A stretch of DNA of 64,000 bases, taken from a virus. The notes beneath the pieces were generated by a model. The model saw only the letters and a list, made by a program, of their open reading frames with translations. It was not told the origin of the DNA and did no database searches. The stretch spans positions 28,963 to 92,962 of the IMG/VR virus record IMGVR_UViG_3300035188_001035; one strand, given 5' to 3'. A program made the position numbers and the translations under genes. Positions 2 to 51,744 of this stretch are shown in pieces (position 1 is the first letter of the stretch; every line of letters starts with the position of its first letter).

Positions 2-1558
2 TCTGGATTCGGCAGATACACAAAGGAAATACTATACAGACTAAGTAAAAGTAATAAATATGAGCTTGCTGAATTGGCTTGTTATCATAAAGATGGATCA
101 AAAACAAACGTACCATGGAAAGTATACTCAAACGTACCAAAAGACGATGATAAACAAAGTATAGAAGCATACGAATCTAATCAGCTTAATCAATTTGGTC
201 AATGGAGATTCGAAAAAGTATTATTAGATTTTAAACCTGATATAGTTTTTGATATAAGGGATTATTGGATGTTCTCCTACCAAGAACTTTCATGTTTAAG
301 ACCATACTATAAATGGATAATAGCCCCAACCATAGATTCTATACCACAAAAAACAGAATGGTTAACAACGTTTGAAAATGCAGATATGGTATTAACACAT
401 ACCGATTGGGCTGGAGACTATTTAAGGTCTCTAAATAGACCTATTAATGTTGGTCCGTGCATCACAGATTCTGTTGACACAGAAGTTTTTCAACCAGTAC
501 ACTGTACAAAAACATATCATAAATCTAGATATGGTTTACCAGCCGATTCTATTATTATAGGATCAGTAATGAGAAATCAAAAGCGTAAACTCATTGCTGA
601 ATTATTTAAAGTTCTAAGAAAATTAATAGATACGACAAATAATCATAATATATTTTTATATTTGCATACTTCTTATCCAGAAAAACAGGGTTGGCCGATT
701 CCCGAATTGTTACAAGAGCATGGGGTGGAGAATAATGTATTATTTACATATTATTCTATTAAGGATAATAGTATATTTGTATCAAAATATAAAGGCTCAA
801 AGATACCATCTCCGTCATGTGACGATGGAGTATCCATCTTCCCTAATGTGCAATTAGGTATTAATAACGATCAGCTTAATGATGTATATAATTTATTTGA
901 TATATATGTACAGTATGCTATTTGTGAAGGCTTGGGTATTCCTCAGCTAGAAGCTGCTTCTTGTGGTATACCTATTTTTTCTGTTAATTATAGCGGAATG
1001 GAAGAAATAACATCTAAAGTTGATGGCGTTAAAATTAATTATTTATTGGCTACTGAGTTGGAAACCGGATCAGATAGGGCAACACCAGATAATGATCATT
1101 TAATGCACGAGATCATGGAATGGATGCAAAAAACAACAAAAGATAAGCTTAAATTTTCACATAAAACAAGAGAATTATTAGTTCAAAATTATAGTTGGGA
1201 TATGACAGCAAAAACTATCATGGATGTTTTTGATAATATGCCTATAAATGAAGACATATGGTCTGTTCCAATGAATGCCAATACAAAACTATCAGTTCCA
1301 GATAATCTATCCAATAGAGAATTTGTAGAATTTATTATCCGTGATATTATGTGTGAGCCTAATTTATTAAAAACTTATTTTGCTCAAAACCTAATAAAAT
1401 CACTCAATGAATCTATTGATATCACATCAAATAAAAATAATATTCAAGCCAGAGAAGCGGTTATCAAAGCACTAGAGATATTCTTAAATAATAAAGTCTT
1501 TTGTGAACAAGTCAGATCAGGAAAAATCAAACTAAATGATAATTTCTTGTCATCATGA
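2..1558 (+). CDS. GT4 (GT-B fold) glycosyltransferase, 5'-truncated by window edge
   Basis: Frame is open from position 2 (SGFGRYTKEIL...), upstream of the tracked TTG at 74; RNQKRK motif and EGLGIPQLEAASCG (EX7E) signature of GT4. Confidence 0.85.
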   Translation, partial: SGFGRYTKEILYRLSKSNKYELAELACYHKDGSKTNVPWKVYSNVPKDDDKQSIEAYESNQLNQFGQWRFEKVLLDFKPDIVFDIRDYWMFSYQELSCLRPYYKWIIAPTIDSIPQKTEWLTTFENADMVLTHTDWAGDYLRSLNRPINVGPCITDSVDTEVFQPVHCTKTYHKSRYGLPADSIIIGSVMRNQKRKLIAELFKVLRKLIDTTNNHNIFLYLHTSYPEKQGWPIPELLQEHGVENNVLFTYYSIKDNSIFVSKYKGSKIPSPSCDDGVSIFPNVQLGINNDQLNDVYNLFDIYVQYAICEGLGIPQLEAASCGIPIFSVNYSGMEEITSKVDGVKINYLLATELETGSDRATPDNDHLMHEIMEWMQKTTKDKLKFSHKTRELLVQNYSWDMTAKTIMDVFDNMPINEDIWSVPMNANTKLSVPDNLSNREFVEFIIRDIMCEPNLLKTYFAQNLIKSLNESIDITSNKNNIQAREAVIKALEIFLNNKVFCEQVRSGKIKLNDNFLSS

Positions 1559-2661
1559 ATAATATACTATATATAGGACCATATAGAGAATTTACTGGAA
1601 TAGGTAATGCATCTAGAAAATATATACAGGCTTTATGCGACGCTGGATTCAATATTGTCTGTCGCCCACTATTCAATACTATAAAACCTATTATAGAACA
1701 AGAATTAGAAGATATTATTATTCGTTGTGAAAAGAATAATTTAGACAATTATGATACAATAATTCAACATGCATATCCACACCAGTTTTGTCATATCAAT
1801 GGCTATAAAAATATAGGTATAGTTTCTTTAGATAAAACTCATTATGGATACGATATTTATGAATATCTGAATATCGTGGATGAAATTTGGGTTGGTTCAA
1901 CACACGCTAGAGAAGAACTTATTAATGGCAACATAGATATTGATAAAATAAAAGTTGTGCCAGAATTTATAGATTTATCAATTATAGATGATTATAAACA
2001 GAAAAATATAAAACAATCTAAAAAAAACAAGTTTATGTTTTATACCATATCAGATTTTACTAATAAAAAAAATCTACAAACTTTGATTCTAGCATTCTTT
2101 ATTATTGCTATAGAATTTCCAGATACTGGACTACTGATTAAAACTAAAAATACAAATAATGATAGTAGTAACTTAACATCTTTATTGACCTATGAAATAG
2201 ATAAAATAATAGATTCATTACCTTTTAAGATCGATAAAAATATAACATACCCAACACTTATAGTAGGGGAAACTAAATATGATAATATACTATATATACA
2301 TAATAATTGCGATTGTTATATAGATATATCGTCCGGAGAAAGTTTTGGATATCCAGTATTAGAGGCTATGTGTTTTAATAATCAGATTATAGTGAATAAG
2401 AATTCTGGTTCTTCAGATATAGTTAAGGGTACAAAATTCTATGGAGTAGAATCAACCCCTAAAAATGCTCACGATAATAGTCATCCATATTGGATATATA
2501 ATTCTTTTCATCATAAATATTATGTTCCGGAACTTGATAGTTTGGTTATGCAAATGAAGCGAGCTTTAAGTGAGTCTCTTTCAGAAAAGTCTGAGCGAAT
2601 AGAATCACAAAACCATAAAGTCCTAAGCTATTCTATCAATAATATTAAAGGGTTTATATGA
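1555..2661 (+). CDS. GT4 glycosyltransferase
   Basis: N-terminal TGIGNASR, KKNL, ESFGYPVLEAM (EX7E); ATGA overlap with upstream gene. Confidence 0.85.
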   Translation: MNNILYIGPYREFTGIGNASRKYIQALCDAGFNIVCRPLFNTIKPIIEQELEDIIIRCEKNNLDNYDTIIQHAYPHQFCHINGYKNIGIVSLDKTHYGYDIYEYLNIVDEIWVGSTHAREELINGNIDIDKIKVVPEFIDLSIIDDYKQKNIKQSKKNKFMFYTISDFTNKKNLQTLILAFFIIAIEFPDTGLLIKTKNTNNDSSNLTSLLTYEIDKIIDSLPFKIDKNITYPTLIVGETKYDNILYIHNNCDCYIDISSGESFGYPVLEAMCFNNQIIVNKNSGSSDIVKGTKFYGVESTPKNAHDNSHPYWIYNSFHHKYYVPELDSLVMQMKRALSESLSEKSERIESQNHKVLSYSINNIKGFI

Positions 2662-6026: not shown

Positions 6027-6356
6027 ATGAAACTAATCTATAAAGCTAATGAAAAACTACAATTTGAACTTGAAGCCGAAGGTCAAAAAGAAATATTCAA
6101 AGAACTTGCAGTAATCCAGGAAATATTTAGCGAAGATAAATGCGCATTATGCAACAAAGGTAATATTAAATTTGTTGTAAGAAATGTTGATGGTAATGAT
6201 TATTATGAATTAAGATGTCAGGACTGTGGAGGCATTTTATCTTTTGGTCAACATAAAAAGGGTGGAACATTATTTCCAAAACGCAAGGACGACAATAATG
6301 AATATTTGCCGAATAGGGGTTGGCATAAATGGAGCAAAGAATCTAAGGATAAATAA
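6027..6356 (+). CDS. zinc-ribbon hypothetical protein
   Basis: CALC...CQDC pairs. Confidence 0.65.
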
Positions 6357-9300
6357 TGTCTCCTGTTTATGTATCGTGTGATGGTAGAATATCACTAACA
6401 CAACACGGTGTAACAACAGATGAAAACTGTTGTGGCGGATGCTGTTCATACATTTCCGCAAATATAGACTATGTAAAAAATGGTCTGCCAACTAGCCCAC
6501 CATCGTACACTAATTGTATCCCTGATGGTCCATCAAAACCAGTTGTTATAAACGAAAATCCACCAGCAGGTATTTGTGCGCTACATGGTCTTCCTGGAAG
6601 TGATGGTACTTTTTCGCCCGGTTGTGATTGTGATTTTGCAAATAGAACCGATTGTTGTGCTTTCTATTGCGATGTTTGCAATGGATCCGCAATTGGTTGT
6701 GATTTTCCTCCTGAGTGTTTCGCGGAATGGACACCTCATGAGTATTGCTATTTGACCAATCCGGTATATCCAGAACAAATATATAATATGGAGCAATATG
6801 CATTAGCTTGGGCTCAAAATGCTGATTTTACAATTATTGACAGATTGAGTGGTGCTCTAAATGAATTAAAAACTTGTTTGGAAGATATGGGTTATCAAAA
6901 CGTAACAGCCAATGCTGGTCTAAGTTATATGCCAGGAACCGACGAACATGGTCATTTTGCTCCTATTGTCGTAGATAACCAGCCTTGGGTTCCTGTGGAC
7001 GAAACTGGACATACACATAATGAATACTTTTCTCAACAAAGATTAGAAGAAGAATATGGATGGGTATTTTATAATGGATATAATCCTGGAGGATGTGTAC
7101 CTGATGGAGAGTGTCATCCAGATATGCAAGCTGCTTGTGGTGGGCCGTGTGGCGGCAATGGTCCGTGTATAAGTCCGGTTATTGTAGACCCGATTAGTAA
7201 TTTGACGTGTCCTCCTCTGATAGTTGATTATGATAACTGTACACAATATTGCGAAAAACAAGACTGTTGTGTGTCTTTAGAACCTATTAGGATAACAGGA
7301 AATCTTTCTGCTAGTTGTTGTGATAATTGTGGGCGTCTTGGTAAGGCCAAATGCTGTACAGCATCCAGCGTTATATTTTCTCAACAGGATTTGGAAACTT
7401 TGAGTATTGGTACATCGGCCGGTAGAGGAGGAAAATGTGGAATTAATGGATGTTCTCCGGCAGTATCAGGAATAAGTGAATGTGATACGTTAGGTAATGG
7501 AATTTTAAATATGTGGTTCGAACCACTATACGAAGGATCAAATGAGTATAATCTTAAAATACTAGCCAGAGAATGTGCGGGATCAAATACTTGTGTAATT
7601 GGTCCATTAAGAGCTTATGAATCAGGATGGAATGAAAGTACACAAAATTATAATAAGCCTATAGATACTTGTGATTATTCTTTTGAAAATCAAGAAGCTT
7701 GTGAATGTGGCTATAGAGTTAAAAAATTATGTGTTTCTACAATCCAAAGAACTTTTAAATTTAATCTTAATACTAGACACGTTGAGTCTGTTTTTGATGG
7801 ATTTATAGCGATATATGCTCCCAATAATCCTAGATGGATGGTTCCAGATCCTCCAACAACACCTTTTGAACAAGATCTTTATAATAGTATATATACAAAT
7901 TATTGTGTTGATAAATATTTATGGCCTTCTTGTTTACCAGAGGATTATGGGATTGGAAATGATGGTTTTTATGTCAGAAAAAGATGCATAGAGAGTGGTC
8001 CGCGGCCGTACAATGAAGATGTTATTACTCCTGGCAATTTCGTTTCTGAATCAGAATCAGTTGATCCATCCTATCCATTTGCAGGTTATGCTTTATGGCA
8101 TTTTAGAAATGACTTGGTTCCTGGATGGGAATTATTTGAGGTAGACGGACCAGATTCTCCAAGAACACAAGGTCTTGCTAGTACACGATCTGCAATAATG
8201 AGAGAAACGGTATATGGTCCTCCAGACGAAAGTGCCGCAACAACAAAATATTACTATACTGCATTTACAAGAAGAGGACTTCCCGATTGGGTGGTATTTA
8301 CTGTTGGACAAGTAACAAATACAGATTGGACATATGGAGGTTTAACTACTGCTTGGCCCCTGGGTTCTGCTATATCGAATCATTATGCTGCTATGTGGGG
8401 TACTGCACCGGTCTGTGATGATATTGATAATCAATTACTGTTCGGTGATGGTGTTTGTGCTGGTAGATTTAAAGAATATTACTATCAATGGACAGTTTCA
8501 GAACAATTTCCTAATCAAGAATCGTCTTGCTCGCCAGTACTAACAAAAGACAATGAAATGAAAAACTGGGGCTGTGGAGTAATGATAGGCGATGAGTTTA
8601 TGCAAAATGGAGCTTGTGAAACAGGTATTCAAATTGTTGATTTTGCTAACGAACTCGAATGGTTGAATGTAATGAACAATTTTAGACCAGTTCCCCCATG
8701 GAATATTGAATTATTATTGGGTACTGATGCTGTGGAATATACTTGTGGATCAGAGTGGGGGGTATGGAATGATCCTGAGTGTGTAGTTGTATATGATGAG
8801 GAACCAACATGCGATCCTACTCCAACACCAGCACCAACATCAACAGAAACTCCAGTAGCATTTACTCCTACTCCGGGACCTACTGAACCATGTCCAACAC
8901 CAGAACCTACTCGTCATTGTGAATCGTTATCTCATGAGTTTGATAGTAATCAATGTCCAACTCCGAGTCCATCAGCTACTCCAACACCAACACCAACTGA
9001 AACTCCTACTCCGACACCTACTCCCACTGAGACTCCTACTCCAACGCCGTCGCCAACACCAAGTCCAACGCCATCGCCAACACCAAGTCCGACTCCAAGT
9101 CCTACTCCGAGTCCAACGCCGTCGCCAACACCGAGTCCGACTCCAAGTCCTACTCCGAGTCCAACGCCGTCGCCAACACCTAGCCCGACACCATCGCCAA
9201 CACCGAGTCCAACGCCATCGCCAACACCAAGTCCGACTCCAAGTCCGACTCCAAGTCCGACTCCATCACCCACGCCAAGTCCTACTCCATCGCCAACACC

Positions 9301-9544
9301 AAGTCCGACTCCAAGTCCTACTCCGAGTCCAACGCCGTCGCCAACACCAAGTCCGACTCCAAGTCCTACTCCGAGTCCAACGCCGTCGCCAACACCTAGC
9401 CCGACACCATCGCCAACACCGAGTCCAACGCCATCGCCAACACCTAGCCCGACACCATCGCCAACACCGAGTCCAACACCAAGCCCAACGCCGTCGCCAA
9501 CACCAAGCCCGACTCCGAGTCCAACGCCATCGCCCACTCCTTAA
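6356..9544 (+). CDS. large Cys-rich protein with C-terminal (PTPS)n mucin-like tail; probable virion surface/fibre protein
   Basis: About 55 Cys in first ~870 aa, many as CC pairs; ~190-aa terminal Pro/Thr/Ser array. Confidence 0.75.
8957..9541 (+). repeat. coding tandem repeat, 12-nt degenerate unit encoding PTPS (~40+ units)
   Basis: ccaacgccgtcg / ccaacaccaagt / ccgactccaagt / cctactccgagt units with synonymous variation. Confidence 0.95.
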
Positions 9545-9566
9545 GTTATAATAAGAGAATAATATT

Positions 9567-10193
9567 ATGGAACCTATTAAAATTATCAATATAGAATGCG
9601 TAAGTAGTAATGCTCCGTGTTATACTATCACTATATCAGCTGCTAATTTTATTCCTGGATATTATATTGAGACTAGTTTAGACAATGGAGGAACATGGAC
9701 AACACAACAATTATTAACATCTTCAATAACTACTACCGATATATGTTTCGAAGAACCACTAGAATCTGCTGTCTTGATCAGATTAGCATATGTAGGATGT
9801 ATGGAAACTATACCTCCAACGCCAACACCATCACCAACACCAACAGAAACTCCAACACCTACCCCGACACCTACTCCCACTGAGACTCCTACTCCAACGC
9901 CGTCACCAACACCGAGTCCGACACCTAGTCCAACGCCAAGTCCTACTCCATCGCCAACACCAAGTCCGACTCCAAGTCCGACTCCATCACCCACGCCAAG
10001 TCCGACTCCATCACCCACGCCAAGTCCTACTCCATCGCCAACACCAAGTCCGACTCCAAGTCCTACTCCGAGTCCAACGCCGTCGCCAACACCTAGCCCG
10101 ACACCATCGCCAACTCCTAGTCCAACGCCGTCGCCAACACCGAGTCCAATGCCATCACCAACACCGAATCCGACGCCGTCACCAACCCCATAA
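9567..10193 (+). CDS. small beta-domain protein with C-terminal (PTPS)n tail
   Basis: ~80-aa N-domain (SLDNGGTW) followed by ~125 aa of PT/PTPS repeats. Confidence 0.8.
9813..10190 (+). repeat. coding PTPS tandem repeat (~25-30 units)
   Basis: Same 12-nt unit family as 8957-9541, including an identical 41-nt block. Confidence 0.95.
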
Positions 10194-10232
10194 TTACTAT
10201 ATCTCTATATAATCAAAGGACTTAAATTCATT

Positions 10233-11492
10233 ATGGAAACAATATTTATTCAAATAGCATCATACAGGGATCCTGAATTAGTACCAACTATTAATGATCT
10301 GATAGATAAAGCAGCAAATCCTAACAATCTAAGATTCGGCATAGCGTGGCAAAATAATAAAAAAAATGATGCTTGGGATAATATAGATTTATTTAAAAAT
10401 GATAAACGATTTAGAATTATAGATATAGATTATAAACAATCTCAGGGAGTATGTTGGGCCAGAAATAAAGTACAACAGTTATATAATAATGAAAAGTATA
10501 CACTACAAATAGATAGTCATCATAGGTTTATAAAAGATTGGGACATTTTATTGATAGACATGGTCAAAAATTTGCAAAATGATGGTTATAACAAACCATT
10601 GATCACCACATACTTGCCTAGTTATAATCCAAAAAATGACCCAAGTGATAGAGTTATGGTTCCTTGGAAAATGAATTTTGATAGATTCATACCAGAAGGG
10701 GCCGTTTTCTTTTTACCAGCACCATTTGACAATAATGATGATATTACTAAACCTATACCATCCAGATTTTATAGCGCACACTTTGCGTTTACATTAGGTG
10801 ATTTTGTTAAAGAAGTACAACACGACCCTAATTATTATTTTCATGGTGAAGAAATAAGTATAGCAGTAAGAGCATTTACACACGGATATGATCTTTTTCA
10901 TCCTAATATTGTTGTGGCTTGGCACGAATATACTAGAAAAGACAGAACCAAACAGTGGGATGATGATAAAACTTGGCATGTAAGAAACCAATTAAGCCAT
11001 TTAAGAAATAGAAAATTATTTGGAATGGATAATGAAAAACAAGATATTGATTTTGAAAAATATGGTTTTGGCAATATTAGAAGTTTAACAGATTATGAGA
11101 AGTATAGTGGGCTATCGTTTAAATCAAGATCCATTACAGATGATGTGATTTATCATAAAAATCCTAATTTGAATAATATAGATATTCCTGATAAAGATTT
11201 TCAAGAATCATTACAACACATTTTTAAATATTGTATAAATTTACCATCAGATAAAATTAATGAAAATGATTATGATTTTTGGGTGGTTGCTTTTCATGAT
11301 GCTGAAGATAGAACAGTATATAGAAAAGATAGTGATAAAGAAGAAATAAAAAATACAGTTTCTAACGGGCGACCGACCTTCTATAATATATGGAGAGAAT
11401 TTCATGTTTCCGAAATGCCAAAAAAATGGGTGGTATGGCCGCACTCACTATCTAAAGGCTGGTGCGAAAAAATAGAAGGTTCAATAATATGA
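10233..11492 (+). CDS. GT60 family polypeptide GlcNAc-transferase (Gnt1/Skp1-hydroxyproline GlcNAc-T-like, Pfam GlcNAc)
   Basis: TIFIQIASYRDPEL, SQGVCWAR, LQIDSHHRF (DSH metal motif), FHGEEI, GYDLFHP, HEY are hallmark motifs of the family. Confidence 0.85.
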   Translation: METIFIQIASYRDPELVPTINDLIDKAANPNNLRFGIAWQNNKKNDAWDNIDLFKNDKRFRIIDIDYKQSQGVCWARNKVQQLYNNEKYTLQIDSHHRFIKDWDILLIDMVKNLQNDGYNKPLITTYLPSYNPKNDPSDRVMVPWKMNFDRFIPEGAVFFLPAPFDNNDDITKPIPSRFYSAHFAFTLGDFVKEVQHDPNYYFHGEEISIAVRAFTHGYDLFHPNIVVAWHEYTRKDRTKQWDDDKTWHVRNQLSHLRNRKLFGMDNEKQDIDFEKYGFGNIRSLTDYEKYSGLSFKSRSITDDVIYHKNPNLNNIDIPDKDFQESLQHIFKYCINLPSDKINENDYDFWVVAFHDAEDRTVYRKDSDKEEIKNTVSNGRPTFYNIWREFHVSEMPKKWVVWPHSLSKGWCEKIEGSII

Positions 11493-12319
11493 AAAGGGCA
11501 TTGGTTGGTTTTGTAACAAATATTACAGCTAATTATTCAAAAATAAAAATATGGACTAATAGCTTTAAAAAACATTGTAAAAATGATGCAATATATCTTA
11601 TTGCAGCAAATGCATCAAATGAAGAAATAGACTTATTAATAAAACTAGATATTAATATTCATAATATTATTATTGATGATAATGATTTACAATTTATCAA
11701 CCATAAAAGACTTTACTATACATATGATCTTTTGTCTAAAATTGATATAGAATATATATTAGTTACTGATGTTTTTGATGTTATTTTTCAAAATGATCCA
11801 TTTAAAAAATTAGACTTTAATAAATTTGATTTGTTTCTAACTTTAGAAGGAGTGTTGGTGAGTGAAGAACCTTGGAATTCTGATGTAATAAACAAAATTT
11901 TTCCAGAATACTATCAGTTATGTAGAAATCGAGATGTAATTTGTAGCGGCATTATAGCAGGAAAACGAGACCATCTAATTAATTTATTATCTAGCATGTA
12001 TAATTTGTGTGAAAACTGTTCAAATAATCATAATATAAAAGATCAGGCCGCACTTATAGTTTTGGATACTATCAAACGTATTGATGCACATATTAAATAT
12101 CTATCATTAAAGGATGGTTGGGTCGTGAATTGTGCCGTTGCTGGGCCAACCAATTTTTTTGAATCTTGGGGATTTAAGAATACTATTGAAAAAAGATACC
12201 TAGATATACCAGTATTAAGAAATAATAATATATATATTGGTGATTTACAATATGATATAGTACATCAATTTAATCGTATTTCTGAATGGAATAAGGAGTT
12301 AATAAAAGATTATGAGTAA
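11489..12319 (+). CDS. GT-A glycosyltransferase resembling the PLOD/LH3 glycosyltransferase domain
   Basis: LVTDVFDVIFQ, CSGIIAG, DQAAL, IVHQFNR; ATGA-coupled start at 11489. Confidence 0.6.
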   Translation: MKRALVGFVTNITANYSKIKIWTNSFKKHCKNDAIYLIAANASNEEIDLLIKLDINIHNIIIDDNDLQFINHKRLYYTYDLLSKIDIEYILVTDVFDVIFQNDPFKKLDFNKFDLFLTLEGVLVSEEPWNSDVINKIFPEYYQLCRNRDVICSGIIAGKRDHLINLLSSMYNLCENCSNNHNIKDQAALIVLDTIKRIDAHIKYLSLKDGWVVNCAVAGPTNFFESWGFKNTIEKRYLDIPVLRNNNIYIGDLQYDIVHQFNRISEWNKELIKDYE

Positions 12320-13064
12320 TGCAATATGCATGTGTACAACATCAGAGACATACTCCCAAAATTTAATAGATTGGAAAAAGAATTTTATTGATGAGAACAC
12401 CTATTTGATTGTAGATAAAACTAAAAATAGTAATTTTAATTCTAATGATTTTATATATACAGAATCTGATATTAGAAAAAATCTTAATTTTAATCATGAT
12501 GTTAGCAAAAAGCACTACTGGAATAGCTATGGCAACAGAAATATTATCTGGTTTTATGCGCATTTTAGAATGATTAATTTCTATTTAACCCATAATGATT
12601 TTGACTATTATTGGTTTTTTGACGATGATGTATATATGGATAATTGGCAAAAATTTATTGATACTACAAATAATTATGATTATGATTTTATGTCATATTT
12701 TTGTTTTAAAAAGAATAATGTAAAATCTACAGAAAATATACCATATATCGATCACAACACAACTTCTGGACAACTGTGGTTTGAAAGATTTCCTGGTCAT
12801 AATGACATACTACCAAAAACAAATGAATATTTTGGGTCTTTTTTTCCAACGGTCAGGTACTCTAATAAAGCGATGAGAAAATTGATTGAAATTAATAGTT
12901 TAGGATATTTTGGTTATTCTGAGGGTTTTGTTCCAACAGTATTAAATATGTATAATTTTTCACTCAAATCTATTATCAATCCTGATAATTCATCAGATAT
13001 GTTCGATATTAACGATATAAATATTTTACATAAAAATATAAGGATTACATGGCAATGGATATAA
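12312..13064 (+). CDS. putative glycosyltransferase (DUF3405-like, GT-A)
   Basis: FDYYWFFDDDV (DxD), FFPTVRYS, SEGFVPT. Confidence 0.6.
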   Translation: MSNAICMCTTSETYSQNLIDWKKNFIDENTYLIVDKTKNSNFNSNDFIYTESDIRKNLNFNHDVSKKHYWNSYGNRNIIWFYAHFRMINFYLTHNDFDYYWFFDDDVYMDNWQKFIDTTNNYDYDFMSYFCFKKNNVKSTENIPYIDHNTTSGQLWFERFPGHNDILPKTNEYFGSFFPTVRYSNKAMRKLIEINSLGYFGYSEGFVPTVLNMYNFSLKSIINPDNSSDMFDINDINILHKNIRITWQWI

Positions 13065-14425
13065 AAAAGCCAATATTAGTTACAGCTATTTATGATATAG
13101 GTAGAGATAATTGGGAATCATATAATCTATCATACAACAATTATTTAGCATGGATGCGCAATACTCTCTCATTAGATAGTTATATTGTAATTTATACAGA
13201 ACGGAAATTTTTGTCTAAAATAGAGGAAATGCGTAAGGAATTCGATCCTACACTAGATAAAACAGTTATTATAACAACACCAATTGAGGAGTTGGATGCG
13301 TATAAACTGTACTATACTAAACTTTGTGATTTAATGTTCAGTAAAGAATTCAAAGATAAAATACATACTAAAGTTCCAGAGATGACCAAACCCCTATATA
13401 ATGTCATCATGTTCAATAAAATATTTTTTCTAAAAAAAGCTAAAGAATTTTTTAATGGAGATTTTTATATTTGGGTAGATGCTGGTGGTCTAAGAGAGAA
13501 TATATCCAATTATAATAATCAAAGATGGCCATGTTTGAATAAAATCAACGAACTAGATAACTCAAAAATAACATTTTTTAGCCATAGTCAAACTATAATG
13601 ATTAGGAATCAAGATATCGAAAATCATGCGTTGTCTCAACAAAGATACATACAAGGAACAGCTTTTTTGATTCCGGTAAATTTGATAGATGAATTATTAG
13701 ATAATTTTAATCAAACTATTAATGAATCTCTGGAACATCAATATATAGGAAGTGACGAAAAAATATTCGATATAACTTATTGCAAAAATAAAACCAAATA
13801 TAGTTTAATTAAGTGTGATTGGAGGACTTACTTTAATATATTCAAAGACGATGGACTAAAACTTTTCGATAAAGACGGAAATAGACCTTCAAAAATATTT
13901 CTAGATCTAGGATCTCATCAATTACAAGGATTAAAAAAATATATTGATAAATTATATATAGATAATAGCTGGGAAATACATTGTTTTGAACCGAATTCTA
14001 TGGTTAAAACAGAAGAGTTTATTGAAGCGATTAAAGAATTGTCTATTCAATTTCATAAAAAAGCAGTATGGATAAGAAATGGAAGAACTATTTTTAATCA
14101 ACACGGAGAAAAAGGAGAAGGGCAAGGTTCTTTATTGGAAGAAACTGAAGGTGGAAAAGCGTATGGAGATTTTTATGCAGAAGAGGTAGTGGACTGTGTT
14201 GATTTGCTAGACTTTATAAAAAAATTAGATCCTAAAAAAGATATTTATATCAAAATGGATATAGAATGGTCAGAATATAAAGTTCTTAATAAATTATTAT
14301 CTGATTGGCCTAAAAATATCAAAAAGATATGGATTGAATGGCATGGATCTAATAGCAATAAAGAGAATATAAAGACTCTAGAGGATGCTATTAAAAATTT
14401 AGGAACAGATCTAGAGGTAATTTAA
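13049..14425 (+). CDS. HtrL/YibB-like glycosyltransferase fused to FkbM-family methyltransferase
   Basis: N-half LVTAIYDIGR, YIWVDAG, GSDE; C-half FLDLGS, CFEPN, KAVW, IKMDIEWSEY, IWIEWH. Confidence 0.75.
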   Translation: MAMDIKKPILVTAIYDIGRDNWESYNLSYNNYLAWMRNTLSLDSYIVIYTERKFLSKIEEMRKEFDPTLDKTVIITTPIEELDAYKLYYTKLCDLMFSKEFKDKIHTKVPEMTKPLYNVIMFNKIFFLKKAKEFFNGDFYIWVDAGGLRENISNYNNQRWPCLNKINELDNSKITFFSHSQTIMIRNQDIENHALSQQRYIQGTAFLIPVNLIDELLDNFNQTINESLEHQYIGSDEKIFDITYCKNKTKYSLIKCDWRTYFNIFKDDGLKLFDKDGNRPSKIFLDLGSHQLQGLKKYIDKLYIDNSWEIHCFEPNSMVKTEEFIEAIKELSIQFHKKAVWIRNGRTIFNQHGEKGEGQGSLLEETEGGKAYGDFYAEEVVDCVDLLDFIKKLDPKKDIYIKMDIEWSEYKVLNKLLSDWPKNIKKIWIEWHGSNSNKENIKTLEDAIKNLGTDLEVI

Positions 14426-14430
14426 TCAAT

Positions 14431-15141
14431 CTATTTTTGTGCATATTCTGATCTAGGATATCTTTTAGTATAGTGATCTATCTTTGAATGATGCATACAA
14501 TACGGATTTGCAAAACCTTTATTTAAAGCGTTCAAAAGCCAAAACTCTCCAAAAATTCTAAATTCGATAGGCTGTAGTTGAGAATCTTTTCTTATATAAC
14601 AACCATATACATCATTAAAACTTCTAATTTTTTTAATATAAGAATTTGATGCCCACCAAAAATTACCAGAAAAATGTGGATGTTTATGACCGTCTTGTAT
14701 AGACTGAAGATTAACTCCACAAGCATCATAATTTTTTAAATATTTTGTTGATTCGTCCCATAATTCTATCAAGAAATATTCCATTAAGTCTATCCAATCC
14801 TGTATATTATCTTTTTCATTTTCTTTTGAGTGTGCTCTCCACACTCCTTTACTATGTAAATATAAAATATTATCTTCGTCTGAAAATTCCTTACATTTAT
14901 TCCATAAAAAATCTAATGTGTGTCCTTCCGTACTTTCATTATTTGAATTAAATGATAGATGAATTTTATTATCGTCTTTTAGAAGTGAAATGATAGAATC
15001 ATCAATATGTTTACCTATCATATTAATATATATTGTATTAATAGAATCATAAAGTCCATAATTTTTAATTTTATGCATGGTTTTTTGGAATCTATCAAAG
15101 TAGTCATTTATACAAAACATATGATAAAAGATATAGTTCAT
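14431..15141 (-). CDS. putative glycan-modifying/GT-like protein
   Basis: ILYLHSKG and HFSGNFWWA motifs; glycosylation-cluster context. Confidence 0.55.
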   Translation of the reverse strand: MNYIFYHMFCINDYFDRFQKTMHKIKNYGLYDSINTIYINMIGKHIDDSIISLLKDDNKIHLSFNSNNESTEGHTLDFLWNKCKEFSDEDNILYLHSKGVWRAHSKENEKDNIQDWIDLMEYFLIELWDESTKYLKNYDACGVNLQSIQDGHKHPHFSGNFWWASNSYIKKIRSFNDVYGCYIRKDSQLQPIEFRIFGEFWLLNALNKGFANPYCMHHSKIDHYTKRYPRSEYAQK

Positions 15142-15150
15142 AATATAGTT

Positions 15151-15828
15151 TTAGTTTTTAAAAAAGTTGTACGCTAAATAATCTTCTATCTCATTCTGAT
15201 TTCCTATATCGAAATGATGATCTCCTAATCTACCATCATCGATTCTATTATATTTTTTAACTTGAAATTCTTCCCTAGTTTTAGAATAATAGTGATTTAA
15301 TTGAGCAATATCTGTTGGTACATCTAGATAAGGACAATTAGGGCGATGAACTTGCATACTAGGGGTGTTTTTATCGATTCTTACTATAGATTTTCCAATA
15401 ATATCAGGATTAATACCTCTTTTTGTAAATCTTTGTAAAACACTATAATTATTATTTTCAACTTTATCCAAACCATTATTACCAAAATAAAACCATCTAA
15501 AACAAAACGCAGCATATTCTTTATAGTTTTTTAAAAAATCTTTTATATTTTTATGATTTTTTAGAACTAAAAATTCATCAATATCAAAAAAAGCAGCATA
15601 TTCATATTCTGATTTATAATCGTCAATAAATTTATTATAACTATAAATTTGTCTATCTCCTCTATCTTCATCAAATTCTATTTTAATTAAATTAGGATGA
15701 TTAAATTTTGTGCGCCAATTATTTTGATAAAGAAATATATTATCGAATCCTAATTTAATATGATATTCTACCCATTCTTGAATATAATAATCTTCATTTT
15801 TAGCTATACAAACACACGCTGTTTTCAT
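15151..15828 (-). CDS. GT92/GT2_4-like glycosyltransferase
   Basis: CIAKNEDYYIQEWVEYH, GFDNIFLYQN, FFDIDEFL, LNHYYSKTREEF; start moved to ATG 15828. Confidence 0.8.
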   Translation of the reverse strand: MKTACVCIAKNEDYYIQEWVEYHIKLGFDNIFLYQNNWRTKFNHPNLIKIEFDEDRGDRQIYSYNKFIDDYKSEYEYAAFFDIDEFLVLKNHKNIKDFLKNYKEYAAFCFRWFYFGNNGLDKVENNNYSVLQRFTKRGINPDIIGKSIVRIDKNTPSMQVHRPNCPYLDVPTDIAQLNHYYSKTREEFQVKKYNRIDDGRLGDHHFDIGNQNEIEDYLAYNFFKN

Positions 15829-15830
15829 AT

Positions 15831-16487
15831 TTATTTGCACCAGTTTGTTGATCTGTTTCCACTCATGTACGATTCGTACTCTCCAGGCATCAACTGATTT
15901 TTCCAATCTTTGTACCAAGGAAGATGTTTAGAAGTATATGGTCCAGCTAATCTTATATATGGCCAATTAGTTGTATAGTTATTATTAATCAAACAAAAAG
16001 TGGTATCTATATCAGCCCAATACATTTCTATCTCTTCATGTATGACCTTATTTTGCCAAAATTTACTTTCCCATTGTTTTATAGTTTGATTTTCATATTT
16101 AACATCTTCTCGCAGATTATCACCAGAAATATCTAAAGCAACCCCTACTTTTCTAATTTTATATTTTTCAGAAGTTTCATACATTATTTGTATTGTTTTT
16201 TTATCTACAGCATCAGATATTTCAATATCAGGATCTGTCAATAGGAAAATGGGTCCAACTATTTTTTTAATTGATTCTAATTCATACACCCTATGTCCAT
16301 GATTCTCCGATAGTCTAATAATGTTTAGTTTAGAATTATCCAAAAAATTTACCATTGGACCGTATGTACTATTATTATCAACAATGAATATATTATTAGT
16401 TATATTAATAAGTCTTTCACAAATTTTTTTAACATATGTATAATTATTATATGCTATAATTAAGCATGGTATGTTTTCTGTATTCAT
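15831..16487 (-). CDS. GT2-like glycosyltransferase
   Basis: IIAYNN, IVDNNST, LTDPDI (DxD), ADIDTTF, HLPWY. Confidence 0.75.
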   Translation of the reverse strand: MNTENIPCLIIAYNNYTYVKKICERLINITNNIFIVDNNSTYGPMVNFLDNSKLNIIRLSENHGHRVYELESIKKIVGPIFLLTDPDIEISDAVDKKTIQIMYETSEKYKIRKVGVALDISGDNLREDVKYENQTIKQWESKFWQNKVIHEEIEMYWADIDTTFCLINNNYTTNWPYIRLAGPYTSKHLPWYKDWKNQLMPGEYESYMSGNRSTNWCK

Positions 16488-17035
16488 ATTAATTCTTCAT
16501 TAAAATTTAGAATAGTTGGCCATAAATATTCTACCATATAATTGGTCTCGTTTTTGACTTCATATGTAGGTAATAAGCTTTTGATTTTTTCATACTGATC
16601 AATATCTCTTTTTTTTATTAAATTTCTAGAAACAATACATTGAGCTGAATTAATAAACTTTATTGGTAATTTATAAGCAATATCGTGTTTTTTACATAAA
16701 TTTATTGTTCTATCAAGAACTTCGCCACCTCTTTCGTATACTCTTCCCAATGGTACAAATTCTTTATCGAAGTTAAAATTATTAACAATATTTAAAAAAG
16801 AGGCACAGTGGAAAAAAGGATTATCTTGACTAAAACAAACATAATCTGGTAAATCATAATAATTATCTATTATATAACTTAAATAAGCTATAGTGTCAAA
16901 ACCTACATTTGGTAAATCAATGTGGTATTTTCCATTATTAATAGGATTTTTATTATAAACAATGTATTCATGTTTTAATTCATTTATCCATGTAAGATTT
17001 TGTTCATAATGACAGATGATAATTTTCATTTTCAT
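16484..17035 (-). CDS. DUF3431-like protein (putative GT-A)
   Basis: LPNVG.D..AYLSYIIDNYYDLPDYVCFSQDNPFFH, EYLWP. Confidence 0.7.
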   Translation of the reverse strand: MKMKIIICHYEQNLTWINELKHEYIVYNKNPINNGKYHIDLPNVGFDTIAYLSYIIDNYYDLPDYVCFSQDNPFFHCASFLNIVNNFNFDKEFVPLGRVYERGGEVLDRTINLCKKHDIAYKLPIKFINSAQCIVSRNLIKKRDIDQYEKIKSLLPTYEVKNETNYMVEYLWPTILNFNEELI

Positions 17036-17059
17036 ATTATTATACCTATATTGTGATGA

Positions 17060-18073
17060 TTATATAATAGGGGTCTCGGTTGGTGTCGGGCTTGGCGTTG
17101 GAGTCGGAGATGGTGTTGGGCTAGGCGTCGGACTCGGTGTTGGTGACGGCGTTGGACTTGGAGTCGGGCTTGGTGTTGGTGATGGCGTTGGACTTGGAGT
17201 CGGGCTTGGTGTTGGTGATGGCGTTGGACTTGGAGTCGGGCTTGGTGTTGGTGATGGCGTTGGACTTGGAGTCGGGCTTGGCGTTGGAGTCGGAGATGGT
17301 GTTGGGCTAGGCGTAGGACTCGGTGTCGGCGATGGCGTTGGACTTGGCGTTGGAGTCTCGGTCGGTGTTGGACTTGGAGTAGGACTCGGCGTCGGGCTAG
17401 GCATTGGAGACGGTGTTGGACAATTAAGGCTATTGAAAAACTCCATATTAGAATAACAAGCAATAGTTGGCGTTGGTGTAGGAGTAGGAGTTGGTGGAGG
17501 TAATGTTGGTGTACACGCAATTGTAACACAAGGAGTTGGTGTAGGATTATACAAATGACACGCAACATCTATCCAAATTAATCCACCTTTTTCGCAACAG
17601 TTAGATTCTTCTGAAAATCCTTCATACTGAGTATGACCGAGGAACTGAATAGTCCCGCAATACTGCGAATTATAATTTGGTATTTGTTCTATAGGCATAC
17701 TAAAATATCTATAATTACAATCAGTATCTAGGGTTGGTGGCATAATAGCCCCGGAACATAAGCTTAGAGACTCCCAATACATTCCTCGGCCAGATCCATG
17801 CACCAAAACCTGAGGAACTCCCTCACTAAAATTTGGTATTTGTTTTATATCGTGGTTGAAAAATCGTTGACAAGATTGTGCTCCACCAAGAGTTCCAGAA
17901 CTACAAGCATCTTCTGTTTCACCATTAATACTCATCCATCTTAAACCATCAGCAGTATCATAGGAATGAGTTAATATTTGCTCTTTATTAGCGTTGAATC
18001 CTGATAATTGTTCCATAGGTACATTGAAATACCTGTGAATTCTACACCACTTTGGGTCTTGATATGCACACAT
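17060..18073 (-). CDS. virion fibre-like protein with three internal repeats and C-terminal (PTPS)n tail
   Basis: Last structural gene of the - strand operon; 3x R[YF]F...Q.L.H...G.xW repeats, then ~120-aa PTPS array. Confidence 0.8.
17069..17419 (-). repeat. coding PTPS tandem repeat, inverted relative to the arrays at 8957-10190
   Basis: Includes three copies of a 36-nt unit (ggcgttggacttggagtcgggcttggtgttggtgat). Confidence 0.95.
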
Positions 18074-18092
18074 TAGTATTTACCTATCATTA

Positions 18093-21000
18093 CTAAGGTG
18101 GTCCACCATCATCTAAACATTCTTCAGTAGTACTAAAAAGTGGTGGAGATCCTGTTCCTATAATCATATACGTTCCACCAGGACAATCACTAGCGCTTTC
18201 ATCACCACCCAAACTTGAATCGCATATCAGATACATTGTTACCAAATCACCAGCTGCTGCTCCGTAACCCAAAGGATTTCTTACGTCATTTATTAACGTT
18301 GATCCCAATATACACTCTGAAGACATTGAATGATCAACATTAACTGATATTCCGGATGCGGTGTTAGAAGTAAAGTCATTATCTGCTGTACCAGTTACCA
18401 ATAATGGTGCACTAGATACGTGCTCCATGATAATGTATTCATTATTTTCATGAAGTTTGGCATATATTTTACTGCCTTTATAATAAGTCTTACCTAGATA
18501 GTCTTTAACATTAATAAAATTACAACCAGATCCAGCTAATTTAGCTTCTCCACTGCACATAGGATCAATACGTTCTGTTAATTGAGCGATAACAATTTTA
18601 TTAGAGTCTCCTCCTGCTACCCATACTCCTCTTTTTCTATCAAACCTTAGATCTATAGGAGCAACTGGCCAAGTTCGTGGATTAGCGAGCCAATTATCCA
18701 TAAATTTATCAGCTAATCCTGAGTTATTAAAAATGCCCTTTTCAGTATCTATTTGAATATCTGTAGAATTTGGTATAGGTTTACCATCAGTATCATAACC
18801 CCAAGCTTGTAAAACTAGTGGGCCTCTTAGAGCACAAAATCCGAAATCATCATGATCGTCGTATCTGTCAGGATCGTGAGAAGATTTAATATCAGCAATA
18901 TCTTCACCAAATGAAAGCATTAAAATATTAGTACTATCAGATTCTCCTCTAGAATCCCATTCTTCTAATAACTTCTTAGATAAAATAGGATTTAAATATT
19001 TTTGATTAATAGGTAAGCCTTTTGATCCACTATTCTTTTTATTTGTTGATGAATTTTCATCATCTTGATCCCAGCTTTGAAAATAAGGACTCAGTCTATA
19101 TTTTCTGCCCTTGATCGATACTGGAGAAATTAAACCATCTAATGACATTAATGCCATATTATATACGGCATCTCCTGTGACTGCACTTTCTACTTCTTTT
19201 AGAGTATTAAGTCCCATTTCATAATTTTTACGCGTTGTTGATGATGAACTATCTTCTTCCGAAGTATCTTCTTCTTCTTCTTCTTCTGGTTGTTGTTCTT
19301 CTTCGCATTGATCAAACGATGAATCACATATACCGTCTAAGTTTATAGCAATGCTTGGAGTGCATTCATTATTTGGAGTTGGTGTTGGTGTAGGAGTTGG
19401 TTCGTTATTTTCTTCGCCACCGCCTCCTCCATTATCTTCTTCTTCTAAGATAGCATCATAATATCCACCAATTAATAAGGACGATGGAGAAGCCGAAACA
19501 TTTGGCGAAGCAACTCGACTTAAAATTTCTTGTATACCTAAATCTTTTAACCTTTGTGCGATAGCTTTTCTAGTTTCTGCCACCATAATAAGTGAATTTT
19601 TTCTTTGTGTTCTAATAATATCTAGTATTCTATTTCTTTCTTTATTTGCTTTCTGAACCTCATCAGACAAAGCCTTGGCGTATTGACCAAATTTTGCTGA
19701 GTATACCTGAAATGAATAATCTGAAGTAACACCGCCCTCATTATAATTTACATTAATACTCTTGATTGTAGCTATTGTATTACGAAAAACCCCTATACTG
19801 TAAGCTGGTGGTTCAGCAAGTGTTACACTACCGCTCTCTGTTTTATTGGTAAATCTAAGACCAGCATTGGACAAAGCTGTTCCCACAGTATTCATACCAG
19901 CATAATCACCATAGGCCCACGGACTCAAATCGGTTTTTACAATTTCTGTTGAGCCTATTTGTCCTTGACTACCAACCCAAGGACCATAAACATAAATATT
20001 ACTTTTCATAGGTATATTAACAGCATAATACATTGCTGCTGCATTTTCTAGTTTAAAAATATTGATAGCTGTTTTTCTAGTTGCTCCCTTAATTCCTTGT
20101 TGATGATTCGATATAAAATCTGTTACATTTTGTGCCATACCGAGCATAGCGGCTAAAGCTCTTAAACCTTGTGTTTTAATTCTATTATCCGCATTAACTG
20201 TTAGTCCTAAAAAGGGTGTTTGTATAACCACATCATTAGTATTGGTTTGAGGATTATTATAAACTTGTCCTGTGGTAGTTAATGATCCATAGATCATATT
20301 ATTAGTTGGTTGATATACATAATTATTATCAGAAAAATCTTTAGATATGATAAAGTCAATATCAAATGCCCCAATCCGTCTTTTTCTACTTCCGGCGGCT
20401 GAAATCATACCAAATCCATTAACTTTACCATCTTGAGTAATAAATAAAGAAGGATCAATTAATCCCATTCTATTAGCTGGTGTTCCGTATCCAGCCTCTA
20501 CGGGAACATCTGATAATGATACTGAAGTATTATCTGATGCCATACCACCGTATAAACCATATGGAGCATGAGCACATATTGTATTAACAGGCACAAGCCA
20601 GTATCTACCGTACCATGTTTTAATAAATTGTTGGAACCATGCATATGCTCTTTCATATAAAACAACATTTACAGCAGCAGAGAACGCGGTGGATATCCCG
20701 GAGATATCGTCCATAGCTCTTGCGAAACCGTTCACATTTCCATTGTTAGCAAAACCTTGCAAAGCATTAAACGCATCTAAAACACGACGTAAATTGACTT
20801 GTCCCAATCCTAATAAATTAATAAGAGTTCCGGACAAGCTTTGTTTATTATTTTCATTACATATTATACCATATAATTTCCACATTTCCGAACTACCAGT
20901 AAAGAGTATTTCTTCTTCGGAAATGGTAAACATAGGAGGAAATCCATTAATAATAGCGGCTATAGGACTAGTATTAATAGGAACTGTAAAATTAATACCA

Positions 21001-22004
21001 TCAACCTGTATAGGAAATCCTGTGAGATCGTATCCTAACATCATCCGAGCTTTTGTTTCTGTAACAACATTGGCTAAATAATGAACTTGTTCACCAATAA
21101 CAAATTTATTACTATTCGCATAAATTTCTTCGAATCCGCGTTCTCCCTTTGTGCAAATACCAGAGGAGAATCCAGCAGATATAATATCTTTTATTGGATT
21201 ATCATTTGTTGGTATAATAGTTCTATCTATTAGATTAATAAATATAGTATATCTTTGGAGTGTAACATAAAAATCACAACCACAAGCATCACATGCCTCA
21301 CTAATTAAATTTAATAAATTACTTTCAGAATTAGATGTTCTAGCATATGGTGCTCTAAATAATAATGTATTAATCAACAATTGAAAGTTTAACGATAATC
21401 TATATTGTCCATTAGTTGTCACTATACCAGTATTATATTGTTGTATAGCGCGTAAAGCATCAACTAGATAAACCTGGTTATCACCAGATGATCTTCCCCA
21501 ATTGTTACAATTATTAACTCGTGGCCAATTGTGGGTATCTTCTCCCGGAGGACACAGTGCAACATCTTTGTGCATCCAAGCGCAAACATTCATAAAGTTA
21601 TAATTATCTAATGATGGTACTGGACAATAATATCCTTTTAATAAAACAGATACATACTCTAACATTTTTCTAGGATCAATAACTTGTACCTTATATCTTA
21701 ATCCATTACTACTTAAACTTTCTGTAGCTGATGTTAGTATTCCACCAAAAGATAATCCAGGAGTAGAAGATCCTTGATTAGCATAAACATTAAATAAAAC
21801 TGGTGTTCCTACTTCTGCTATTTGACCCGCTCCTTGACCAGCACAAGGATCAACAACCAATTCCATATCCAAAGTTGATGATGCCGCACCTATGCCTAAT
21901 ACTAGACTAAAATTACTTAGCCATAAATTACTGGATACAACTTGTCCACCAGATGGTGTTGTAAATGTAAATAGGGCGCTCCTAGAATCACATTTCGTTG
22001 GCAT
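18093..22004 (-). CDS. large tail-tip / baseplate hub-like protein
   Basis: 1303 aa downstream of TMP and distal-tail genes; hub-like N-terminus (FGGIL...YKVQVIDPR); contains acidic/PT insertion. Confidence 0.55.
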   Translation of the reverse strand: MPTKCDSRSALFTFTTPSGGQVVSSNLWLSNFSLVLGIGAASSTLDMELVVDPCAGQGAGQIAEVGTPVLFNVYANQGSSTPGLSFGGILTSATESLSSNGLRYKVQVIDPRKMLEYVSVLLKGYYCPVPSLDNYNFMNVCAWMHKDVALCPPGEDTHNWPRVNNCNNWGRSSGDNQVYLVDALRAIQQYNTGIVTTNGQYRLSLNFQLLINTLLFRAPYARTSNSESNLLNLISEACDACGCDFYVTLQRYTIFINLIDRTIIPTNDNPIKDIISAGFSSGICTKGERGFEEIYANSNKFVIGEQVHYLANVVTETKARMMLGYDLTGFPIQVDGINFTVPINTSPIAAIINGFPPMFTISEEEILFTGSSEMWKLYGIICNENNKQSLSGTLINLLGLGQVNLRRVLDAFNALQGFANNGNVNGFARAMDDISGISTAFSAAVNVVLYERAYAWFQQFIKTWYGRYWLVPVNTICAHAPYGLYGGMASDNTSVSLSDVPVEAGYGTPANRMGLIDPSLFITQDGKVNGFGMISAAGSRKRRIGAFDIDFIISKDFSDNNYVYQPTNNMIYGSLTTTGQVYNNPQTNTNDVVIQTPFLGLTVNADNRIKTQGLRALAAMLGMAQNVTDFISNHQQGIKGATRKTAINIFKLENAAAMYYAVNIPMKSNIYVYGPWVGSQGQIGSTEIVKTDLSPWAYGDYAGMNTVGTALSNAGLRFTNKTESGSVTLAEPPAYSIGVFRNTIATIKSINVNYNEGGVTSDYSFQVYSAKFGQYAKALSDEVQKANKERNRILDIIRTQRKNSLIMVAETRKAIAQRLKDLGIQEILSRVASPNVSASPSSLLIGGYYDAILEEEDNGGGGGEENNEPTPTPTPTPNNECTPSIAINLDGICDSSFDQCEEEQQPEEEEEEDTSEEDSSSSTTRKNYEMGLNTLKEVESAVTGDAVYNMALMSLDGLISPVSIKGRKYRLSPYFQSWDQDDENSSTNKKNSGSKGLPINQKYLNPILSKKLLEEWDSRGESDSTNILMLSFGEDIADIKSSHDPDRYDDHDDFGFCALRGPLVLQAWGYDTDGKPIPNSTDIQIDTEKGIFNNSGLADKFMDNWLANPRTWPVAPIDLRFDRKRGVWVAGGDSNKIVIAQLTERIDPMCSGEAKLAGSGCNFINVKDYLGKTYYKGSKIYAKLHENNEYIIMEHVSSAPLLVTGTADNDFTSNTASGISVNVDHSMSSECILGSTLINDVRNPLGYGAAAGDLVTMYLICDSSLGGDESASDCPGGTYMIIGTGSPPLFSTTEECLDDGGPP

Positions 22005-22017
22005 AATATAATTCCTT

Positions 22018-24468: not shown

Positions 24469-24477
24469 AATTAGCTT

Positions 24478-25941: not shown

Positions 25942-25953
25942 ATTATCTCCAAT

Positions 25954-49755: not shown

Positions 49756-50154
49756 TTATATATTAAAATTAATTTGTCCTTGAATAATTCTTGATGCTTC
49801 ACCTCCAGAATTTAATAACTCAATATAATAATAGCAAATTGATTCAGAAATAGATTCCGTAAATGATTCAGGAATATACATCATGATTCTGCTGTTCGGA
49901 GGATCTAGTCTCAATAAAAGATTGCTCGTGGACATATCTAATAGTATTGTAGACGATGTTGAAGTAGGTTTTATTTGTCCACGTAGTGTGTATCCAACGA
50001 TACTCGCACTACCACTGTTCTTACTTAATTGATATGTTATTCTATAACTAGATCCTTTGTTCAGAGATAGGTTTTTGGTTGATGTTCCAAAGCAAGCATC
50101 ATTTTCAGCTGCATTTTCTATTGTATCAAAAATTGTAACACAGAAAGAAGCCAT
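49756..50154 (-). CDS. Ig-like virion protein (BppU-N-like), paralog of 51745-52137
   Basis: KGSSY...YYIELL...RIIQGQI; GGAG SD before ATG 50154. Confidence 0.55.
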   Translation of the reverse strand: MASFCVTIFDTIENAAENDACFGTSTKNLSLNKGSSYRITYQLSKNSGSASIVGYTLRGQIKPTSTSSTILLDMSTSNLLLRLDPPNSRIMMYIPESFTESISESICYYYIELLNSGGEASRIIQGQINFNI

Positions 50155-50165
50155 ATTAATCTCCA

Positions 50166-51730: not shown

Positions 51731-51744
51731 TCATATCACACTAC

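Follow-up and report, generated by a model that had tools for sequence, protein, structure and literature searches.

A phage locus linking a GT60-family enzyme to Pro-Thr/Ser array proteins: a candidate mucin-type O-glycosylation system

The characterised members of glycosyltransferase (GT) family GT60 are polypeptide alpha-N-acetylglucosamine (alpha-GlcNAc) transferases and all act on proteins, either starting mucin-type O-glycans on Ser/Thr-rich arrays, as in Dictyostelium and Trypanosoma cruzi, or modifying the cytosolic protein Skp1 (PMC8724618). The family is set apart from GT27 by the absence of a C-terminal ricin-type lectin domain (PMC8724618). In phages, virion glycosylation is so far known from a few mycobacteriophages and from hints in single isolates. 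Here we describe a stretch of 64,000 nucleotides (hereafter the window; bases 28,963-92,962 of the 92,962-bp viral contig IMGVR_UViG_3300035188_001035 of IMG/VR, with an estimated completeness of ~64%) in which a GT60-family gene leads a cassette of eight enzyme genes lying between the genes of three proteins with long Pro-Thr/Ser arrays. We propose, with a probability of roughly 0.6, that the locus encodes a cytoplasmic, mucin-type protein O-glycosylation system of the phage. We found no literature description of GT60 or its Pfam family PF11397 in phages, or of mucin-like phage repeats as GT60 substrates, and the association of GT60 enzymes with arrays in phages is apparently both widespread and undescribed. 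The genes at the centre of the argument are the following.

6356-9544, plus strand: PTPS protein 1 (P0001), 1062 aa, with a Cys-rich N-domain and a C-terminal array at aa 821-1061 (nt 8816-9538)
9567-10193, plus strand: PTPS protein 2 (P0002), 208 aa, with an 83-aa N-domain and an array at aa 84-207 (nt 9816-10187)
10233-11492, plus strand: GT60-family enzyme (PF11397, Pfam E 6.9e-77), putative polypeptide alpha-N-acetylhexosamine (alpha-HexNAc) transferase
17060-18073, minus strand: PTPS protein 3 (P0003), 337 aa, last gene of the tail operon, with an array at aa 194-332 (nt 17078-17494)

The first gene past the two plus-strand arrays had been called GT60-like in the first-pass annotation, and this assignment is borne out: 10233-11492 matches the PF11397 'GlcNAc' model with 259.7 bits against a cut-off of 21, covering model positions 1-53 and 96-351. 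GT27 and GT60 enzymes use a D-x-H metal-binding motif. In an alignment of 11 phage homologues (25-63% identity) a motif of this form, D94-S-H96, is invariant, together with H231. The protein has no hydrophobic segment and is predicted to be soluble. Its residues ~290-419 (window 11100-11492) form a conserved C-terminal extension of ~130 aa, in which Pfam shows no second domain and no ricin-type lectin domain was recognised; the extension is kept in the main phage GT60 lineage and is missing from shorter GT60 lineages (L116, L147, L094, L123). By analogy with the lectin domain of GT27, which it resembles in position, it may be an acceptor-binding domain. A PDB sequence search with the enzyme gave nothing useful, and a search of a large protein database returned more than 7,480 environmental homologues at E <= 1e-10. 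One Atlas cluster holds 77 phage proteins of ~796 aa that join PF11397 to GT7 N- and C-terminal domains of the beta4-galactosyltransferase type, thus placing an initiator and a second transferase within one chain.

The three open reading frames (ORFs) originally singled out for terminal Pro-Thr/Ser arrays do carry them, with lengths of 241 (P0001), 124 (P0002) and 139 aa (P0003), and nothing comparable occurs in any other ORF of the 92,962-bp contig. Chance is excluded as their cause by perfect stretches of 84, 43 and 46 P-[TS] dipeptides, respectively. The arrays consist of ~45% Pro and 45-46% Thr plus Ser, the dense Ser/Thr composition asked of substrates in mucin-type systems, and together contain 234 Ser/Thr residues. 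Since they sit at protein ends, they are tails and not interdomain linkers. The underlying DNA is scrambled: the 42 PTPS units of P0001 are encoded by 14 different 12-nt versions, and neighbouring units are ~65% identical, yet at the peptide level the repeat is flawless; this speaks for selection on the peptide and against recent slippage. The codons CCG, ACG and TCG are frequent in the arrays and rare in the tape measure gene, and the arrays thus use G-ending codons that the phage seldom uses elsewhere. The scrambled synonymous codons could have arisen because repeats in the DNA are selected against, or because the tail module is of foreign origin.

Such a transferable 'tail module' is suggested by a unit that P0001 and P0003 have in common on otherwise unrelated N-domains. 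In both proteins a C-x11-C loop (aa 855-867, nt 8918-8956 in P0001; aa 206-218, nt 17420-17458 in P0003) with the shared pattern xSxxxEFxSxx comes after a shorter PT stretch and runs straight into CPTPSP and the long array. The N-domain of P0001 holds 55 Cys, and P0003 holds 14. No homologue of the P0001 N-domain was found in a search of 5.8 billion proteins, and the N-domains of all three proteins were without a match in Pfam or PHROGs. Inverted repeats between the arrays were also considered as recombination sites and rejected, being only 70-77% complementary and explained by opposite strands that encode one and the same peptide.

The neighbourhood of the GT60 gene was surveyed in 80 loci fetched from IMG/VR, where the enzyme has at least 179 relatives; the homologues in these loci are 57-63% identical to it. 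An upstream gene was counted only if it lay on the same strand and within 700 nt of GT60, as in 74 loci. In 60 of these 74, that immediate neighbour has a Thr/Ser+Pro array; the count is 21 of 29 clusters after dereplication at 95% GT60 identity, against 104 of 1126 other flanking genes (9%; Fisher p 3e-43, not corrected for relatedness). An earlier array criterion of Pro >= 30%, which identified only 17 of the 80 loci, was too strict since most upstream arrays are of the type (T-P-x)n, for example PTNTQTPTNTETPT, and was replaced by the Thr/Ser+Pro criterion; poly-Thr and TEP-type arrays in turn escaped a later criterion. Array proteins encoded just before GT60 are 147-1,420 aa long; outside the arrays they differ in length, and they have several C-terminal sequences. 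Most of them end in a conserved domain of ~50 aa (GPNxGEYLY...NGYYSNGTAWYQVTGGxGxITSxDPNGC; L023 8703-9917, L081 7998-9908 and many others) that has no Pfam match and is absent from P0001-P0003. On the other side, 72 of the 80 loci have an HtrL-like gene no more than 5 kb downstream of GT60, and the genes between the two vary (GT25, GT10, FkbM, GT4, DUF3431). These gene orders suggest that initiator and partner are conserved and that the enzymes for extension are exchangeable.

The remaining enzymes between the arrays of the window are listed below.

11489-12319, plus strand: GT-A glycosyltransferase, nearest in fold to retaining GT6/GT8, with a DxD motif (D94/D97)
12312-13064, plus strand: GT-A glycosyltransferase, like inverting GT31/GT25, with an invariant DDD motif (104-106)
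13049-14425, plus strand: HtrL/YibB-like domain fused to an FkbM-family methyltransferase (Pfam E 4e-19 and 1e-5)
14431-15141, minus strand: DUF8361-like protein (Atlas feature score 0.98 to viral DUF8361 clusters, from language-model features only)
15151-15918, minus strand: GT-A glycosyltransferase, GT92/GT2_4 (Pfam E 2e-12 and 3.5e-11)
15831-16487, minus strand: GT2 glycosyltransferase (Pfam Glycos_transf_2, E 5e-6)
16484-17035, minus strand: DUF3431 protein (Pfam E 2e-14)

The cassette had been described as eight GT or GT-like genes. Five of them stand as GTs by family or fold; the description does not extend to the HtrL/YibB-FkbM fusion or to the two DUF proteins. The predicted structure of 11489-12319 is of high confidence (AlphaFold2 predicted local distance difference test, pLDDT, 92), and Foldseek relates it to alpha3GalT, GTA and GTB at E 7e-9 (TM-score ~0.55); its Atlas relatives are joined to GT29, or to PF11397 and GT7 in the 796-aa phage proteins. 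The model of 12312-13064 is of moderate confidence (pLDDT 73), with Foldseek matches at E 1e-4 to beta4GalT (8xkd), B3GNT2 and B3GalT5. The HtrL-like and DUF3431 profiles gave no useful PDB match, and hhalign comparison with two GT-A profiles shows no relation, so that neither is called a GT; the gene 13049-14425 is probably glycan-related and, in addition, a methyltransferase. A DUF3431 gene lies immediately 3' of GT60 in five related loci and is joined to an HtrL-like domain in L017. The protein 14431-15141 had no Pfam match, even in a loose search, and no PDB match, and neither PDB sequence searches with the three unassigned ORFs nor loose Pfam searches with the unassigned upstream ORFs gave anything useful. 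Translation of 15151-15918 probably begins at a site downstream of its TTG start, since the reading frame from the TTG shares 88 nt (15831-15918) with the end of the upstream GT2 gene and is matched by Pfam only from residue 40. A transmembrane-like segment is found in none of the eight cassette enzymes, which would therefore act in the cytoplasm.

We infer the acceptor, donor sugar, order of enzymes, incorporation into the virion and biological role as follows. During infection, the soluble GT60 enzyme would add a first sugar, drawn from host UDP-HexNAc and most likely from UDP-GlcNAc, to Thr and Ser hydroxyls in the (PTPS)n tails of the three phage proteins, which offer 234 candidate sites. 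The glycans would then be extended by the HtrL/YibB-like partner and by variable GT-A and GT-B enzymes, which at this locus would be the GT6/8-like and GT31-like enzymes, two GT2-type enzymes and two GT4 enzymes encoded upstream, and the FkbM domain would methylate a sugar. At least the protein 17060-18073 would enter the distal tail as a densely glycosylated, extended and protease-resistant tail that could serve in shielding, adhesion or receptor contact.

Related phages differ at this site. Between the homologue of the conserved gene 6027-6356 and the distal tail gene lies a variable hotspot, which measures 11.7 kb here (6356-18073), ~9 kb in L004 (6821-16075), ~1.3 kb in G139 (79248-80539) and ~1.5 kb in G145 (157903-159413). 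L004, the closest relative, has at the same site a cassette with GT60, HtrL and a different set of GTs, and convergent downstream of it two array proteins, one of which is a homologue of the tail protein 18093-22004. In the complete 159-kb genome G139, both the cassette and long arrays are missing from the hotspot; a divergent GT60 is encoded at another position, and the C-terminus of the homologous tail protein bears a poly-Thr stretch. Where GT60 has no array gene beside it, arrays occur in other parts of the genome, as in G139, the cultured phage XacN1 and the jumbo contig G090; in the last, a cluster of array proteins is found at 147-161 kb, 120 kb from the cassette.

The link is less marked when the search starts from the arrays. 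A DNA pattern for (PTPS)6 retrieved 120 viral stretches of all GC contents, and in 9 of these a GT60 homologue occurs in the fetched flank, separated from the array by 0-3 genes in 8 cases. With 25-63% identity to the enzyme of the window, the nine homologues represent several lineages. Counted by whole viral record, PF11397 is present in 10 of 91 with (PTPS)6 and in 0 of 45 control records with collagen-like (GXY)12 repeats. A coupling of a GT60 initiator to Thr/Pro arrays, the core of what the first-pass annotation had claimed, appears well supported by a gene linkage conserved across lineages: the expected co-occurrence is strong from GT60 to array, while the link from PTPS array to GT60 is real but weak.

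Several observations weigh against a mucin-type system acting on the arrays. Of the 91 whole viral records bearing (PTPS)6, 81 are without GT60, including 12 of the 13 that are >=90% complete, and the collagen-repeat control may differ in habitat. The complete 230-kb relative G145 likewise has poly-Thr arrays and no GT60, and arrays thus do not need the GT60 enzyme. The loci of the forward survey are related to one another, and their adjacency counts are not independent events. In jumbo phages the cassettes lie 30-120 kb away from the arrays. The P0001 and P0002 genes follow replication genes, outside the tail and structural operons, and in the main lineage replication genes (DNA polymerase B in L039) likewise adjoin the array genes that precede GT60. 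Finally, the arrays are proposed as acceptors from gene linkage only.

Some of these points would fit a cassette that acts on a non-protein glycan, be it host lipopolysaccharide (LPS), capsule or teichoic acid, in exclusion or receptor masking, or a free polysaccharide, with arrays that are fibre spacers in a shared accessory region. The HtrL/YibB, GT25, GT2 and GT4 families are indeed typical of clusters for LPS and cell-wall glycans, the cassette occupies a variable hotspot, and Thr/Pro arrays occur in the 9% of other flanking genes noted above and in many phages without GT60. This explanation nevertheless seems unlikely, given that every characterised GT60 enzyme acts on proteins (PMC8724618) and that GT60 abuts an array gene in lineages down to 25-37% identity, in contexts as different as tail genes, a portal gene and DNA polymerase. 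Moreover, the cassette enzymes are without membrane segments, and neither a flippase nor a polymerase nor an undecaprenyl-phosphate transferase was recognised.

If the substrate is a protein, it could be another one, either of the host or, as in mycobacteriophages, the capsid or tail tube of the phage, with the arrays as bystanders. The cytosolic GT60 enzyme Gnt1 targets one specific residue of Skp1 (PMC8724618), and the distance between cassette and arrays in jumbo phages would be accounted for. The positional linkage of GT60 to arrays would be left unexplained, however, and support is wanting: the C-terminus of the major head protein is not Ser/Thr-rich, and no P/T/S run is present in any structural gene from head to tape measure. 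The prolyl hydroxylase family PF13640 is absent at E <= 0.1 from the 92,962-bp, ~64% complete contig, which makes a hydroxyproline route of the Skp1 type unlikely. We consider modification of another protein quite improbable. Even less credible is hypermodification of the phage DNA, in which the GTs would glycosylate hydroxymethyl-pyrimidines as a protection against restriction. Phage GTs that put diverse glycans on DNA are known (bioRxiv 10.1101/2023.12.21.572611), and the plus-strand operon comes after the replication module and a dNMP kinase. Against this stand the protein substrates from which alone the GT60 family is known (PMC8724618), the lack of any mention of PF11397, GT60 or XacN1 in the DNA-glycan literature examined, and the absence from the contig, at E <= 0.1, of a thymidylate-synthase-like hydroxymethylase (PF00303), in a search not specifically directed at MT/TET enzymes.

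The wider gene neighbourhood includes the following features.

2-1558, plus strand: GT4-type (GT-B) glycosyltransferase (Pfam Glycos_transf_1, E 2e-10)
1555-2661, plus strand: second GT4-type glycosyltransferase (Pfam Glycos_transf_1, E 3e-10)
18093-22004, minus strand: distal tail protein, 1303 aa, 22 Cys, with a short PTPTPTPTP at aa 869
30731-43339, minus strand: tape measure protein, 4202 aa (PHROG tape-measure families, E down to 9e-23), which fixes the tail module
52788-53792, minus strand: major head protein, a tailed-phage marker
58021-60033, minus strand: large terminase, a tailed-phage marker

With terminase, major head protein and tape measure protein all present, the source of the contig is a tailed phage, and a tape measure protein of 4,202 aa implies a very long tail. 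The array and enzyme region consists of two convergent operons placed between the replication and tail modules. The replication module, upstream of the window, encodes RecA, DnaB, primase, dNMP kinase, a split DnaE and SSB; in the split DnaE, an exonuclease gene separates the PHP/NTPase part from the finger/HhH part (genome 24053-28382). The first GT4-type gene begins 47 nt ahead of the window (genome 28916), and its homologue is kept in G139 and G145.

The tail operon, in which the tape measure gene is followed by five large genes for distal-tail proteins, ends with the gene of P0003. In other lineages, array proteins either resemble PHROGs of the minor-tail or virion-structural class or are encoded next to portal or virion-structural genes. 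At this locus, a location in the virion is proposed for the tail-operon protein 17060-18073 alone. The homologues of 18093-22004 in L004 and G139 bear Thr-rich arrays of their own, and no relatives of the tail protein 22018-24468 were found in viral contigs. Four of five distal tail proteins have 7-22 Cys (region 17060-27432), and the head and proximal tail proteins (43425-57976) have 0-7, mostly 0-3. It is possible that the Cys richness of the PTPS and distal tail proteins reflects disulfide-stabilised exposed parts.

A mucin-type system of the kind proposed here would be different from, and far more widespread than, the phage virion glycosylation described so far, with a named initiator family and with substrates predictable from sequence alone. 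In aquatic and jumbo phages, the long Thr/Pro stretches of tail and fibre proteins would then be glycan carriers and not plain linkers, with a bearing on host recognition, particle stability, grazing and immune recognition. As a tentative generalisation, soluble GT60s and Thr/Pro-array substrates may constitute a widespread form of mucin-type O-glycosylation in phages from ~90 kb to jumbo size, in which swapped elongators would produce lineage-specific glycan brushes. The presence in bacterial viruses of relatives of the enzymes that initiate eukaryotic mucin O-glycosylation matters for the origin of the pathway: if the proposal is correct, phages would be the largest reservoir of GT60 and could be near the prokaryotic root of the eukaryotic GT60/GT27 initiators.

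Among other viruses, the chlorovirus PBCV-1 and mimivirus are eukaryotic giant viruses whose glycan linkages and enzyme families differ from those of the proposed phage system, and to our knowledge no mucin-type arrays have been recognised as their substrates. They resemble it in that, as cited in PMC5852040, virion proteins are glycosylated by a cytoplasmic machinery of the virus itself. In mycobacteriophages, phage-encoded GTs are reported to decorate C-terminal parts of the phage's own structural proteins as a proposed shield (Freeman et al. 2023, as summarised in PMC12619734); the acceptors there are capsid and tail-tube C-termini, whereas here they would be dedicated mucin-like arrays of 120-240 aa on other proteins.

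Closer parallels are offered by the protist enzymes. Dictyostelium modB/GntB and the T. cruzi pp-alphaGlcNAcT share PF11397 and the D-x-H motif with the phage enzyme, and their acceptors, like the presumed phage acceptors, are dense Thr/Ser/Pro arrays. The phage cassette encodes further Gal-type transferases, and the O-GlcNAc of T. cruzi is likewise extended by galactose (PMC8724618). The protist enzymes of modB/GntB type are, however, type-II membrane proteins of the eukaryotic Golgi, whereas the phage enzyme is predicted to be soluble and would act in the bacterial cytoplasm; it also differs from them in its conserved extension of ~130 aa. In this respect the resemblance is to the Skp1 pathway of Dictyostelium and Toxoplasma, in which Gnt1, a soluble cytoplasmic GT60, is followed by soluble elongators of GT2, GT31 and GT8 type (PMC8724618). 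Yet Gnt1 needs a prolyl 4-hydroxylase and modifies a single hydroxyproline on one protein, whereas no such hydroxylase was found on the phage contig and the candidate Thr/Ser sites number in the hundreds.

The nearest comparison is with cultured phages. The Xanthomonas jumbo phage XacN1, Xoo-sp13 and the Stenotrophomonas phages CM1 and RAS14 encode a GT60 homologue 45-47% identical to that of the window, followed by an HtrL-like gene. In XacN1 (AP018399.1) the homologue is ORF334, and there are differences from the locus described here: a carbamoyltransferase follows GT60, the host is a high-GC Xanthomonas, and the arrays lie ~30 kb from the cassette. The published description of XacN1 (PMC5852040) named neither the GT family nor the substrates, although its authors suspected the two GTs of the phage, ORF334 among them, as the makers of its glycoproteins. 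The likeness lies in ORF369, ORF370 and ORF372 (249342-261711; L337 1343-13712), annotated as hypothetical proteins and adjoining the tail sheath genes, which carry 120-250-aa Thr/Pro/Val arrays of (PTVT/PTxT) type among globular domains. It also lies in the virion, since purified XacN1 particles show at least two periodic-acid-Schiff (PAS)-positive glycoprotein bands (PMC5852040). As XacN1 and Xoo-sp13 are in culture, the idea that phage GT60 enzymes glycosylate such array proteins is directly testable in the systems that most resemble this one.

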